Source of the DNA: a virus | Lineage: Duplodnaviria; Heunggongvirae; Uroviricota; Caudoviricetes | Strand: one strand, 5' to 3' | Virus record (IMG/VR): IMGVR_UViG_3300026224_000017 | Length of the DNA: 9,744 nt | Shown: in pieces, positions 2,758-6,027 of the stretch | Layout: every line of letters starts with the position of its first letter | How positions within the stretch are numbered: the stretch's first letter is position 1 | Position numbers and translations under genes: made by a program | Notes under the pieces: model-generated | What the model saw: only the letters and a program-made list of their open reading frames with translations | What the model was told of the DNA's origin: nothing | Databases searched by the model: none

Positions 2758-3234
2758 ATGCGGTTCTATTTCAACAAAAAAGGTCTTTCTGGTATTTCTG
2801 TATCAAGCGGAAGGAGTAGTGGTGGCTGTGGAACATTAATTGGAGTTGTCTTTATACTTTATTTAATTGGCCATTTTTCATCACCTTCCGATGAAGATAT
2901 TAAAAATGAATCATCATCTTATAAGACAGCAGTCGTTAAAAGCGACAAAATAATTTCCGAAATCTGCGATCAGTTTAGCACTGATGATTCCGCAAAAATA
3001 TTTTTTAATTCAAATCTAAACAAACATTGGTATAAAACAAAAGTTAAAGTAAATTCACTATCAGATCAAAGATTATCTGCGATTGATTTCAAAAATCCAG
3101 AATTAAAGTATGAAATAAGAATGTCTGATTCAAGACCATTAAGAGTAGGGGATATTATTTCCGTTGAATTTGTACCTACTGAATTCAGTAAGTATTCATG
3201 CGAAATCAGTGGCACAATAGGTAAGTACAAGTAA
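2758..3234 (+). CDS. Hypothetical membrane-anchored protein (single N-terminal transmembrane helix, ~120-aa C-terminal domain), 158 aa
   Basis: Strong RBS AAGGAG 5 nt before the ATG. A basic N-terminus is followed by a hydrophobic helix (TLIGVVFILYLIGHF) and then a K/S/D-rich domain. The gene is very AT-rich (sampled stretches about 20-35 percent GC) and ends 4 nt before an intrinsic terminator. No recognisable family by eye. Confidence 0.6.
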   Translation: MRFYFNKKGLSGISVSSGRSSGGCGTLIGVVFILYLIGHFSSPSDEDIKNESSSYKTAVVKSDKIISEICDQFSTDDSAKIFFNSNLNKHWYKTKVKVNSLSDQRLSAIDFKNPELKYEIRMSDSRPLRVGDIISVEFVPTEFSKYSCEISGTIGKYK

Positions 3235-3238
3235 CCTC

Positions 3239-3272
3239 AAAAAAAACAGCCCGCTGAACGCGGGCTGTTTTT
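3239..3272. terminator. Bidirectional rho-independent terminator shared by convergent genes 2758-3234 and 3271-3660
   Basis: A-run 3239-3246, 8-bp GC-rich stem cagcccgc (3247-3254) / gcgggctg (3260-3267), 5-nt loop, T-run 3268-3272. The A-run/T-run flanks make it functional in both orientations. Confidence 0.75.
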
Positions 3273-3660
3273 AATATACGCCACGAATAAGATCTTGGGT
3301 AAAAACATCACATCCTTCGCTACCTAATTGCAGTCTTTTCTTAAAGTACTCAATAATACCGTCATTATGAACGCCATTTTTGGAAATTTTTAACCACGTA
3401 TTGCTCCATTCTATACTTTGGAGTTTTGTTAAAGCCGCTTTTTCATTTCCTTCACTAACCAAGCGACACGATTCTGATAGTTGATCAGTTACAATCATTT
3501 CATTTCTCATATGCTGAAGCAATTGTCGCTGTTCTTCGCTTAAAGTAACATCTTGATTAGTAATGAGTCTTTCTGATTTTTCAATTGGCGTACCAATCGC
3601 ACACCAAGAGACGAATAAAATTGTAAATAAAGGGAGTGTAATTTTTATACTGACCGACAT
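3271..3660 (-). CDS. Hypothetical secreted/periplasmic protein with N-terminal signal sequence and two cysteines in the mature part, 129 aa
   Basis: ATG at 3660 is preceded by GAGG with a 5-nt spacer; the GTG at 3666 suggested by the ORF track sits inside that Shine-Dalgarno. The N-terminus MSVSIKITLPLFTILFVSWCAIG has n, h and c regions of a Sec signal peptide. AT-rich (about 33 percent GC in a sample). The stop overlaps the terminator T-run. Confidence 0.6.
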   Translation of the reverse strand: MSVSIKITLPLFTILFVSWCAIGTPIEKSERLITNQDVTLSEEQRQLLQHMRNEMIVTDQLSESCRLVSEGNEKAALTKLQSIEWSNTWLKISKNGVHNDGIIEYFKKRLQLGSEGCDVFTQDLIRGVY

Positions 3661-3689: not shown

Positions 3690-3717
3690 ATTTTATCAAC
3701 GGTTTCCCTCTATTCAA
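3690..3717 (-). promoter_or_regulatory. Candidate sigma70 promoter for gene 3271-3660
   Basis: On the minus strand: -35 TTGAAT (3717-3712), 16-bp spacer, -10 TAAAAT (3695-3690). Predicted start near 3683, about 23 nt upstream of the ATG. Found by eye only. Confidence 0.35.
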
Positions 3718-3724
3718 ATCAGAC

Positions 3725-3752
3725 TTTACATCCATGAGCTATTGAGTATGAT
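3725..3752 (+). promoter_or_regulatory. Candidate sigma70 promoter for the antirepressor-like gene, back to back with the minus-strand promoter
   Basis: -35 TTTACA (3725-3730), 16-bp spacer, -10 TATGAT (3747-3752). The two -35 elements are 8 bp apart, a typical divergent promoter layout. Found by eye only. Confidence 0.35.
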
Positions 3753-3979
3753 TATGCGCATGAGGCGTCGAAACCTCTTTCACGCGGCCTAGACCAACCC
3801 CGTCAGTGTTGGATTTTTTATGCCTACAATTCAGTGATGGCACAATGTGCGGTCACATCCCCGATCAATGTCGGGAGGGCGACGAATACAACACCCGAAA
3901 GGGAAATAAGTCCGCGGTTTCGTGAAGCCGTTTCGAACCTCCTGGCACCACAATTTCGAAAAAATTTCACGAGGTTTCT

Positions 3980-4537
3980 ATGACCAGCCAATTAATTCCC
4001 GTATTCAACGGCATTGTTTCAAACGAAACTACCCTTCTCTGCAACGCTCGCGATCTGCACACCTTTCTCGAAGTAGGTAAACGCTTTGCTACTTGGATCA
4101 CCGAGCGAATCGGCGAGTATGAATTCATAGAAAATCAGGACTACATAGCTATTTCCCAAAAACGGGAAATAGGTCACGGACGAGGGAAAAAGGACTACCA
4201 CCTCACCCTGGACACCGCCAAAGAACTGGCAATGGTCGAGCGCAACGAAAAAGGCCGCCAGATCCGCCGATACTTCATCGAGTGCGAGAAGAAGCTGCGC
4301 GAGGATACCACCAGCACACAATCCCCTCTGAATGTTGACATCATCATGCGCGTCAGAAACGGCTCGGTTACCCACATTGAGCACCACAAATCAGGCTCAG
4401 TTATAACCACAGAATGGGCAATTCACTTACTACGCAAAAGTGGATGGATTGTCATGCCACGCGATGAACTTCTTAACACGCCACTGGCCCAACTGATGCC
4501 CGAAAATTTGACTCAAACCGGAACCTGCGTCCGGTAA
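3980..4537 (+). CDS. Phage antirepressor-like protein (AntA/AntB-type N-terminal domain), 185 aa
   Basis: GAGG 5 nt before the ATG. The N-terminus (LIPVFNG ... ARDLHTFLEVGKRFATWITERIGEYEFIENQDY) and central segment (LTLDTAKELAMVERNEKGRQIRRYFIECEKKL) match the pattern I associate with AntA/AntB antirepressor proteins. The C-terminal ~70 aa are not recognisable. Confidence 0.6.
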   Translation: MTSQLIPVFNGIVSNETTLLCNARDLHTFLEVGKRFATWITERIGEYEFIENQDYIAISQKREIGHGRGKKDYHLTLDTAKELAMVERNEKGRQIRRYFIECEKKLREDTTSTQSPLNVDIIMRVRNGSVTHIEHHKSGSVITTEWAIHLLRKSGWIVMPRDELLNTPLAQLMPENLTQTGTCVR

Positions 4538-5188: not shown

Positions 5189-5243
5189 GGAAGACCTCCA
5201 AACATACGTAATTATCCCTTGCCTTATTCAAGGTCAGAAACAG

Positions 5244-5275
5244 AAAGCCCCGACTGTTTGCCCAGTCGGGGCTTT
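5244..5275. terminator. Strong GC-rich stem-loop (terminator- or attenuator-like) just downstream of the spike gene
   Basis: 13-bp perfect inverted repeat aaagccccgactg (5244-5256) / cagtcggggcttt (5263-5275) with a 6-nt loop. Flanking sequence is moderately T-rich on both strands. It sits about 38 nt after the stop of the 5314-6027 gene. Confidence 0.5.
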
Positions 5276-5313
5276 CGCTTTATGGATAGAATTTAAAGTG
5301 AAATGAACCGGTA

Positions 5314-6027
5314 TTAACCCGGATTTGGTTTCTTTGACGTGATCGTGCTGTTGCCGCTTTGAACCCCAGTCACATCGTGGCTGTGACCGCTGGCGCTGAC
5401 ACCTTTTATCATCGCGTCGTTTTGCACAGTAAGCGGGCCAATCAGCGAAGCGGTTGTATCCTTCATCTGGGCTTTGTCCTGGACGATCGGTCCGTTGAGG
5501 TGAATTTTCCCGTTCAGGAAAATATCTTCGGCCTCGAGGTAAACAGCTTTCGACTTTTGCCTGATTTCTTCCGGTGCCACCGTTACCGAGCTACTGCCGT
5601 CCTCTGTTTTGAGGATCGCGCCATCCGGACCGTACAAAACGATCTTTTGCGGATCTTCGTCGGACCAGTCCTTGTTTGCCAGTGGCACGAAAAACAGTGG
5701 AGTGAGCGACATCGAGTAAGAGAGCGTCGCCATACCGGTTCCCAATCCGGACACACCGCGCAGGGATACATCAGCGGCAATTGTTACTCCTCGATCGCCC
5801 GGCTGTATCGGGTAACGAATATACGGGAATGTGGCGACAGGGATTGTTATCTGCGGAAAGTTGATCCCCTCCGGCAGCATATCAAACTGAACTGTCACTA
5901 TCTGCCCGCTGACACCGACAACATGGCAGGGCAATTCACGACCTTTAAGCTCGGCTTGCTGGTTACCAGAACTGGTCATCATCTCCGACAGCGTTCGGAG
6001 AAACGGTAATTTTTGAGCGTTTGACAT
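5314..6027 (-). CDS. Baseplate spike protein, P2 gpV / Mu gp45-like, 237 aa
   Basis: Size and position match. The C-terminal region has a His-containing apex-like motif (GHSHDVTGVQSG) and a Gly/Ser/Thr-rich beta-type sequence, as in gpV-type spikes. Its start overlaps the stop of the upstream hub-position gene. Confidence 0.6.
   Translation of the reverse strand: MSNAQKLPFLRTLSEMMTSSGNQQAELKGRELPCHVVGVSGQIVTVQFDMLPEGINFPQITIPVATFPYIRYPIQPGDRGVTIAADVSLRGVSGLGTGMATLSYSMSLTPLFFVPLANKDWSDEDPQKIVLYGPDGAILKTEDGSSSVTVAPEEIRQKSKAVYLEAEDIFLNGKIHLNGPIVQDKAQMKDTTASLIGPLTVQNDAMIKGVSASGHSHDVTGVQSGNSTITSKKPNPG

Follow-up and report, generated by a model that had tools for sequence, protein, structure and literature searches.

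A probable c4-like antisense RNA module, built on an sRNA-Xcc1 family RNA, in the leader of a prophage antirepressor gene

What does the leader of a prophage antirepressor gene contain, and how might it control the gene that follows? This question is raised by the virus record IMGVR_UViG_3300026224_000017, a 9,744-nucleotide (nt) stretch of DNA that was analysed at its full length and is referred to below as the window. The window is part of an Escherichia coli prophage of the Rac-SA53 type, in which a unit made up of a structured RNA and ant, a gene of the AntA/AntB antirepressor family, is inserted among baseplate genes. RefSeq annotates the same ant coding sequence in near-identical E. coli prophages and leaves the leader without any feature, while the leader itself is found in 162 of 5426 complete E. 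coli genomes. An initial annotation of the window, made from the letters alone, had taken the region for the regulatory leader of an antirepressor-like gene, and this general view is supported by our analysis. We conclude that the leader, at 3760-3980, is probably a c4-like antisense RNA module that guards the antirepressor gene and is built on an RNA of the sRNA-Xcc1 family.

The sRNA-Xcc1 family RNA and its target boxes

The initial annotation had missed three components of the leader: an RNA known to Rfam (3870-3954), the upstream copies of the target boxes of this RNA (3768-3773 and 3778-3784) and a conserved hairpin (3834-3856). When the window was scanned with the Rfam models, the sole above-threshold match was RF02221 (sRNA-Xcc1), on the plus strand, with 69.7 bits against a gathering score of 53, coverage of the entire model (positions 1-87 of 87) and an E-value of 2e-11 for the window or 6.5e-13 for 300 nt. 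RF02221 was also at or above threshold in 14 of 15 other homologous loci that were scanned with Rfam, with no match in the remaining one. The founding member of the family, the integron-encoded small RNA (sRNA) sRNA-Xcc1 of Xanthomonas campestris, is described as a discrete 88-nt RNA of strain 8004 with mapped ends, studied by Northern blot and rapid amplification of cDNA ends (PMC2996969). The window RNA matches the family model over the full length and has the same three-stem fold, consisting of a closing stem and the hairpins P2 and P3, and it takes up the Rfam shape when its sequence is folded in isolation. In a MAFFT alignment of 17 homologs, the closing stem and P2 each have one pair that is changed on both sides, and the closing stem and P3 contain G-U pairs that are valid only in an RNA of the plus strand. 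The internal loop of P2 (AAUACAA/GAAU) and its CCC-GAAA-GGG hairpin are nearly invariant among homologs.

Two single strands of this RNA have complements on both sides of it. These are the loop of P3 (box X) and the strand that joins P3 to the closing stem (box J), and their complements are denoted X' and J', numbered 1 upstream and 2 downstream (Table 1). Upstream, X'1 (3778-3784) is complementary to the P3 loop at 3921-3926, with a duplex energy of -6.9 kcal/mol, and J'1 (3768-3773) is complementary to the junction strand at 3931-3936. Downstream, J'2 and X'2 lie between the RNA and ant, the Shine-Dalgarno (SD) sequence of which is GAGG at 3971-3974, with the ATG at 3980. The initial annotation had described four TTTCG-type motifs as a symmetric array, at 3918-3926, 3931-3937, 3954-3960 and 3965-3972. 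These positions are exact in the sequence; the array, on the other hand, resolves into the two boxes inside the sRNA-Xcc1 RNA and their two complements, and the symmetry is a by-product of this complementarity. A scan for repeats reports the same region as inverted arms of 18 nt (3920-3937 and 3955-3972) with 78% complementarity. Motif counts within the window are unremarkable (TTTCGAA occurs 5 times against 2.4 expected, a number reached in 28 of 200 shuffles, and TCGTGAA occurs 5 times against 1.3 expected), and the significance of the motifs comes from the comparison with homologs, not from such counts.

Homologs were collected with the core AATACAANACCCGAAAGGG as the search pattern, which gave at least 120 viral contigs and at least 120 bacterial genome contigs; 62 distinct leaders from the viral contigs were parsed, and several of the counts given below refer to 60 homologs. 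The median distance from the closing stem to the ATG, which has an SD, is 46 nt in this viral set. The boxes vary strongly, with 13 variants of J (TTTCGAA, TTTTGAG, TTACGAA, TTCTGAA, TTTTCAG and others) and 48 variants of X among the 62 leaders, yet nearly every leader has complements of its own J and X downstream, in the order J' then X' and 2-5 nt apart, with X' ending 5-12 nt 5' of the ATG. The leader L006, for example, carries the pair CUCGUUGA / UCAACGAG. Upstream copies that match the leader's own boxes are present in most homologs, about 100-130 nt 5' of the RNA. The conservation of the repeats, which the initial annotation had named as a check, takes a particular form: complementarity and layout are kept, while the box sequences themselves are variable.

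Because the hypervariable boxes misalign in MAFFT, column-wise scoring of covariation was replaced by an alignment-free permutation test. The longest Watson-Crick run between a box and its own leader was compared with the runs between that box and the leaders of other RNAs, using 52 non-redundant representatives and 5000 permutations, and own and permuted partners were given equal freedom of offset. Own partners gave the longer runs throughout, for X to downstream (6.63 versus 4.60 permuted, z = 15), J to downstream (6.71 versus 4.74, z = 12.5), X to upstream (7.02 versus 5.43, z = 13.3) and J to upstream (6.75 versus 4.93, z = 11.6), and in each case 0 of 5000 permutations came up to the observed value. 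In addition, the Watson-Crick part of X' overlaps an SD-like core in 42 of the 52 leaders. On this comparative evidence, the pairings of the boxes are very likely under selection and very likely cover the ribosome binding site (RBS). A strand test based on the excess of G:T over A:C beside the box helices (34 versus 55) was uninformative and was dropped.

Promoters, hairpins and neighbouring features

Back-to-back promoters had been proposed for the region between ant and the divergent gene, on the plus strand at 3725-3752 and on the minus strand at 3690-3717, and both were recovered by our consensus scan, which found 5 sites per kilobase against 2.1 +/- 1.3 expected in shuffles. Comparison with related elements separates the two. 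The plus-strand site is supported, since homology to Stx and other phages begins at 3762, right behind the predicted -10 element, and about 15 of the 17 aligned homologs have a -10-like TAnnnT hexamer at the same distance, 8-10 nt 5' of where the conserved block begins; its transcript is predicted to start at about 3759-3762. The minus-strand site is outside the conserved module and has no comparative support, because that side differs between related prophages, and the scan gave a further minus-strand candidate at 3699-3670.

Other signals that were considered in the same region were rejected. For a separate promoter just 5' of the RNA, no acceptable hexamers were seen by eye at 3830-3865 and none came from the scan, and neither a LexA box nor another operator was seen by eye near the promoter, at 3700-3760. 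A sigma54-like TGGCAC at 3943-3948 (within CTGGCACCACAATTTCG, 3943-3957) has the wrong spacing to a GC (GG-N10-TC) and is not conserved in homologs; its likeness to a -24/-12 element is that of the 3' strand of the closing stem followed by the ACC tail. A scan found no transfer RNA (tRNA) or transfer-messenger RNA, and an attC-like integron site was rejected by eye, the boxes not fitting GTTRRRY.

Between the upstream boxes and the RNA stands a hairpin, ccaac (3794-3798) with gttgg (3808-3812) followed by six Ts, which the initial annotation had already described as weak and terminator-like. A hairpin with a run of at least 5 Ts occupies this place in 48 of 60 homologs, with differing stems (for example CCGC/GCGG, CCACGA/TCGTGG and ATCGC/GCGAT). 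With a stem of 5 bp and a loop of 9 nt, the window hairpin falls below the criteria of a simple terminator scan. Its loop (3799-3807) has a CCCGNYAG motif that recurs across homologs while the stems differ (CCCGTCAG, CCCGATAG); the observation takes in 48285-48300 of L124, and the hairpin at the same position of phage P1 has CCGATA in its loop. Just 5' of the terminator hairpin in L074, eight tandem copies of CCAAGCCA fill about positions 1-85 of the extracted leader. The next hairpin, P0, has 4 of its 10 pairs changed on both sides across the 17 homologs, with stem variants such as GUGGUUGCA/UGCAACCAC in L007 and AUGGUUGAU/AUCAACCAU in L030, and may provide context for processing of the RNA. 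In L023 (3130-3175), the 5' half of the RNA itself is replaced by CTAATACAA repeats.

Table 1. Features of the ant leader and its flanks in window coordinates; paired fractions refer to the alignment of 17 homologs.
Feature	Position	Strand	Sequence, support or remark
Candidate promoter of divergent 129-aa gene (3660-3271)	3690-3717	-	TTGAAT/16/TAAAAT; scan 9/12 with TG
Sigma70-like leader promoter	3725-3752	+	-35 TTTACA 3725-3730, -10 TATGAT 3747-3752; scan 10/12, spacer 16
5' hairpin	3762-3777	+	GAGG[CGUCGAAA]CCUC, loop holds J'1 (UCGAAA 3768-3773); 100% paired
X'1, upstream b-type target box	3778-3784	+	UUUCACG; direct repeat of 3965-3971
Terminator-like hairpin	3794-3819	+	CCAAC/GUUGG, 9-nt loop, then U6; 97.6% paired
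Hairpin P0, 13 nt 5' of the RNA	3834-3856	+	GUGAUGGCAC-AAU-GUGCGGUCAC; 86% of cells paired
sRNA-Xcc1-family RNA	3870-3949	+	Rfam RF02221; 77 nt to end of closing stem, 77-80 nt overall
Closing stem (stem P1), 9 bp	3870-3878 with 3938-3946	+	99.3% paired
P2 hairpin	3881-3912	+	Internal loop AAUACAA, CCC-GAAA-GGG tip; 100% paired
P3 hairpin	3914-3918 with 3927-3931	+	100% paired
Box X (b'-like), P3 loop	3920-3926	+	UCGUGAA
Box J (a'-like), junction strand from P3 to closing stem	3931-3937	+	UUUCGAA
3' tail	3947-3950	+	ACC(A); R-C-C-[C/A] in about 50/60 homologs
J'2, a2-like target box	3955-3961	+	UUCGAAA; complements 3931-3937, -6.3 kcal/mol
X'2, b2-like target box	3966-3974	+	UUCACGA 3966-3972; complements 3920-3926, overlaps SD, -9.7 kcal/mol
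ant, AntA/AntB antirepressor family, 185 aa	3980-4537	+	Pfam AntA PF08346, E = 1.8e-27

The small neighbouring genes at 3271-3660 (minus strand) and 2758-3234 (plus strand) have no Pfam or NCBIfam match. Related prophages differ on this flank of the insert, which in Rac-SA53 holds two plus-strand genes. The 129-aa product has, by eye, a hydrophobic N-terminus resembling a signal peptide. Between these two convergent genes, at 3240-3288, sits a GC-rich hairpin, AAAAACAGCCCGC-GTTCA-GCGGGCTGTTTTT, that has A/T runs on both sides like a bidirectional terminator and is the source of sub-threshold Thr_leader and Trp_leader matches. A further hairpin at 5212-5335, AAAGCCCCGAC...CGGGGCTTT, causes sub-threshold matches to rimP-leader and sar and probably serves as a terminator between tail genes; it does not represent a sar-like RNA acting on ant.

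Proposed mechanism and rival explanations

In the c4-like module that we propose, a transcript started at the sigma70-type promoter would carry, in this order, an a1-like box in a hairpin loop, a b1-like box, a weak terminator, P0, the sRNA-Xcc1 RNA, an a2-like box and a b2-like box. The RNA would offer two single-stranded boxes, a' in the stretch from P3 to the closing stem and b' in the loop of P3. These would pair with a2 and b2, cover the RBS and thereby block translation of Ant. The fold of the RNA, the three copies of the boxes, their kept complementarity, their position on the SD and the collinearity with phage P1 (set out below) are shown by this analysis. Three further steps are suggested by analogy with c4 of phages P1 and P7, CI of P4 and IsrK of Gifsy-1, and by the discrete 88-nt RNA of Xanthomonas. 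The RNA would be cut from the read-through transcript, possibly by RNase P at its 5' end, the closing stem and ACC tail being tRNA-like. It would also act in trans as an immunity function, in which the box sequences set the specificity. Finally, the short a1/b1 transcript that ends at the terminator may have a modulating role, by relieving repression as a decoy or by offering a site at which pairing favours termination.

Several points weigh against this mechanism. The Rfam models C4, c4-a1b1 and isrK have no match in 3700-4000 even at E <= 10, and for that reason the comparison supports equivalence of design with the P1 system rather than homology. Column-wise covariation of the box pairs scored poorly on the MAFFT alignment, in which the variable boxes are misaligned, and support for these pairs comes from the permutation test. 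The terminator hairpin is weak (5 bp). The invariant internal loop of P2 (AAUACAA ... GAAU) is unaccounted for by an antisense role, and with the a2-like box only 5-9 nt 3' of the RNA the pairing could be purely intramolecular. The minimum free energy structure of the whole leader, moreover, has another global fold, in which the region of the 5' hairpin (3764-3777) is paired with the SD region (3971-3984). This pairing of the 5' end with the SD could be, as a model, an IsrK-like inactive conformation of the full-length mRNA; covariation is uninformative about it because both sides are invariant in close homologs. The fold makes use of the perfect complementarity between GAAACCUC (3770-3777) and GAGGUUUC (3971-3978), the latter spanning the SD and the spacer.

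The main rival takes up some of these points. It is an intramolecular pseudoknot switch, that is, a purely cis-acting, riboswitch-like leader in which the RNA would stay in the ant mRNA, its P3 loop and junction strand would pair with the RBS boxes of the same molecule, and a ligand or protein on the P2 loop would gate the RBS. A compact intramolecular pseudoknot is topologically possible because the a2-like box follows the closing stem so closely and the A-rich linker of 2-5 nt faces the 3' strand of P3, and such a switch might explain the invariant P2 loop and the CCC-GAAA-GGG hairpin, which the antisense model does not. The gain on cofolding in trans, only about -5.6 kcal/mol, also speaks for this rival. 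The segment duplexes in the window have modest energies (-9.7, -6.3, -6.9 and -8.5 kcal/mol). We nevertheless consider a switch of this kind unlikely, though it deserves to be taken seriously. It leaves no role for the terminator or for the conserved and covarying upstream copies of both boxes, and it sits poorly with a founding member that is a discrete RNA, with three loci (L044, L054 and L130) in which the RNA has a hairpin and U-run of its own and lies more than 200 nt away from the next gene, and with an R-CC tail that resembles processed c4. The gene context suggests no ligand, and none of the Rfam riboswitch families has a match in the window. That the sRNA acts in trans on unlinked targets of the host or of a plant, its position 5' of ant being incidental, is a view to which we give little chance. 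It is the assumption made in the Xanthomonas and Xylella literature and draws on X. campestris, where a discrete sRNA under the control of HrpG/HrpX is reported and many targets have been predicted, and on the presence of the RNA in Xylella vesicles. A conserved unlinked target is implausible, however, because the boxes differ in nearly every homolog and yet match the RBS of the adjacent gene, and the class of that adjacent gene is consistent across phyla-wide homologs.

Two further readings go back to the initial annotation, which had seen in the outer repeat either an operator or a structure sequestering the RBS. The RBS does appear to be the target, at the level of RNA; a DNA operator, with the inverted repeats binding a dimeric repressor that controls the ant promoter, is the least probable of all the readings weighed here. 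The arrangement is indeed symmetric in the DNA and placed between promoter and gene, but the promoter is 190-220 nt upstream of its arms, which fall within and behind a structured RNA and are spaced from about 30 to 65 nt apart owing to an optional hairpin. The boxes are hypervariable but stay complementary, they come in three copies (one box and two complements) and not as a palindrome, and G-U pairs in the neighbouring stems mark a plus-strand transcript. The 48-codon open reading frame (ORF) at 3837-3983, which had been left as a leader peptide or chance, exists as described, with its ATG at 3837 and its TGA at 3981-3983 overlapping the ant ATG. Translation of this ORF, coupled to ant through the ATGA overlap, is very improbable, and from its sequence features we regard the ORF as chance. 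Its ATG has no SD and lies inside hairpin P0, and the ORF overlaps the RNA, whereas the genuine coupled small ORFs, such as those of P1 icd-ant1, Gifsy-1 orf45-anrP and Pseudomonas members, lie after the RNA and not over it. Any frame is open across the RNA in only 28 of 60 homologs, where phase, start (mostly TTG/GTG) and end differ, and the TGA of the ATGA arises because the gene starts with Met-Thr (ATGAC), as in 14 of the 17 aligned homologs.

Family context and comparison with c4-type systems

Nearly all genes that follow the RNA in homologs are of the Bro-N, KilA-N, P22-antirepressor, AntA, ORF6N or Rha types. Among 75 distinct downstream proteins from viral contigs, Pfam assigned P22_AR_N to 22, P22_AR_C to 26, Bro-N to 22, KilA-N to 13, ORF6N to 6, AntA to 5 and Rha to 3. 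Among 58 from bacterial genomes (Pseudomonas, Pasteurellaceae, Xanthomonadaceae, Rhodospirillales and others), Bro-N was found in 27, followed by P22_AR, Rha, KilA-N, ORF6C, the SymE toxin and AntA. The literature likewise mentions sRNA-Xcc1 in front of an ORF6N gene in APSE phages and, in integron cassettes of Xanthomonas, in front of symE. In Pseudomonas members (L125, L139, L141, L150, L169, L171, L182, L203, L240 and L243), the box and SD after the RNA open an ORF of 25-30 codons (MP...HV/HA), the TGA of which overlaps the ATG of a Bro-N gene whose own SD lies inside the small ORF, a coupling like that of icd and ant1 in P1. Escherichia phage phiSTEC801-Stx1a has two tandem sRNA-Xcc1 modules (2068-2157 and 2610-2695), each before an ORF named 'antirepressor Ant', the first of only 96 aa, and the junction and loop boxes differ between the modules. 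In the Haemophilus-type loci L044, L054 and L130, the hairpin and T-run that follow the RNA (CCCTAATTTGTATTGACAGCGGATAGGGTTTTT) are succeeded by an apparent further a1-type hairpin, GGG[AGTCGAAA]CCC, and another terminator before the next gene, a layout that suggests arrays of modules and free-standing RNAs.

The passages on sRNA-Xcc1 that were covered present the RNA as a virulence-linked trans-acting sRNA with many predicted targets, or merely list it, and they make no mention of covarying RBS boxes, upstream copies or a likeness to c4. No paper linking sRNA-Xcc1 with c4, IsrK or CI was found in the literature searched. The family occurs in phages, prophages, integron cassettes and islands of Alpha-, Beta- and Gammaproteobacteria, and we lean, if only slightly, towards regarding the whole of it as a second, sequence-unrelated class of c4/CI-type processed antisense immunity RNAs, with private two-box addresses and P2 as a handle. 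If this is true, each copy would have an address that fits both an upstream decoy and the RBS of the gene beside it (Bro-N, KilA-N, Ant, Rha or SymE); where a genome has tandem or multiple copies, these would be orthogonal RNA locks on toxic or anti-repressor genes, and the invariant P2 loop would serve all of them as a handle for a processing or chaperone factor. Automatic annotation places the RNA in many proteobacterial genomes (15 copies in an Aeromonas strain, 7 in Xylella, tandem copies in Stx phages), and it has repeatedly been treated as a virulence sRNA whose targets are unknown or lie in the host. The present evidence points to a lock on the adjacent gene, usually one of the antirepressor or Bro-N type able to trigger prophage induction, with the two-box logic of the P1 c4 immunity RNA. 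If this holds, prediction of sRNA-Xcc1 targets should turn to the adjacent leader, box variability would mean specificity comparable to heteroimmunity, and the set of RNA-based immunity systems would gain members outside the C4 family, in E. coli prophages and among them Stx phages. A 7+7-nt address that covaries with its targets is also a natural design for orthogonal translational repressors.

The closest parallel is immI of phages P1 and P7. In P1 the order annotated in GenBank is P1c4, a1 (7 nt), b1 (8 nt), a hairpin with a U-run, the 77-nt c4, a2, b2 and icd, the stop of which overlaps ant1. Mature c4 ends in ACC after the closing stem, and a1 lies in a hairpin loop in the c4-a1b1 model. 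On the Rfam C4 structure, a' of P1 (CUGUCAA, pairing with a2 UUGACAG) corresponds to the strand that leads from P3 to the closing stem, and b' (UCACUAAC, pairing with b2 GUUAGUGA) to the loop of P3. According to published work, RNase P processes c4, b' blocks the RBS and a' confers the specificity (PMC5320573). All parts of the window leader are collinear with the P1 locus, down to the length of the RNA (77 nt when counted to where the closing stem ends), the ACCA tail and similar distances. The topology of closing stem, P2 and P3, with a' in the junction strand and b' in the P3 loop, is the same, and the position of the promoter relative to the first target box resembles that of P1c4/P51b. 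As in the C4 family, two boxes are complementary to downstream a2 and b2 segments, b2 lying at the RBS (3931-3937 with 3955-3961, 3920-3926 with 3966-3972), and a second set stands upstream (3768-3773 and 3778-3784), predicted to be on the same transcript. The gene at 3980 has an AntA domain and the genes behind the RNA in homologs are of antirepressor, Bro-N and KilA-N types, which points to control of an antirepressor operon. The layout of isrK and c4-a1b1 is present as well, with an a1-like box in the hairpin loop at 3762-3777, a b1-like box at 3778-3784 and a terminator with U-run at 3794-3819. Variation of the boxes together with their targets across the family resembles the heteroimmunity of P1 and P7. 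The two systems differ in that the closing stem of c4 has about 17 bp against 9 bp in the window RNA, that its P2 is a plain UUCG hairpin instead of a conserved internal loop with a GAAA tetraloop, that a2 and b2 are 22 nt apart in P1 against 2-5 nt in leaders of the window type, and that P1 has the icd ORF where the window RNA would target the ant RBS directly.

Phages P1, P7, P4 (seqA/CI) and N15 have been grouped as systems of the IsrK-C4 type (PMC3632133), and the antirepressor AnrP of Gifsy-1 is controlled by the short terminated IsrK RNA through its action on the read-through transcript (PMC4825925). The Gifsy-1 (IsrK/STnc1160/orf45-anrP), P4 (seqA/CI/seqC) and N15 (CB RNA) systems share with the proposed module a short 5' RNA ending at a terminator, a processed read-through RNA, complementary sequences upstream and downstream, and control of antirepressor or lytic genes. 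The window hairpin at 3794-3819 has the position of the IsrK/seqA terminator in P1, Gifsy-1 and P4, and the P1 hairpin with its Us is itself matched by the 3' hairpin of the isrK model. The outcomes differ: the short RNA of Gifsy-1 activates translation via alternative mRNA structures and an ORF, and in P4 the outcome is transcription termination. The sar RNA of P22 blocks translation of antirepressor mRNA, as we propose for the window RNA, but it is a cis-antisense RNA of the opposite strand, whereas the window RNA lies on the same strand, 5' of its target; the sub-threshold sar match of the window lies elsewhere, in the probable terminator hairpin, at 5218-5279.

P1 itself scores 68.8 bits with the C4 model (RF01695, clan CL00128). 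In the 15 homologous loci none of the models C4, isrK (RF01394) and c4-a1b1 (RF03163) has a match at gathering score, and no Rfam clan is listed for sRNA-Xcc1. Because of this, and because the three models do not match the ant leader, the RNA is filed here under sRNA-Xcc1 and not as a member of the C4 family, while the module is described as working like the c4 system. The comparison suggests that another RNA family has taken up the design of the c4/CI immunity RNAs, and it points to a possible function for an RNA that is annotated in many genomes.

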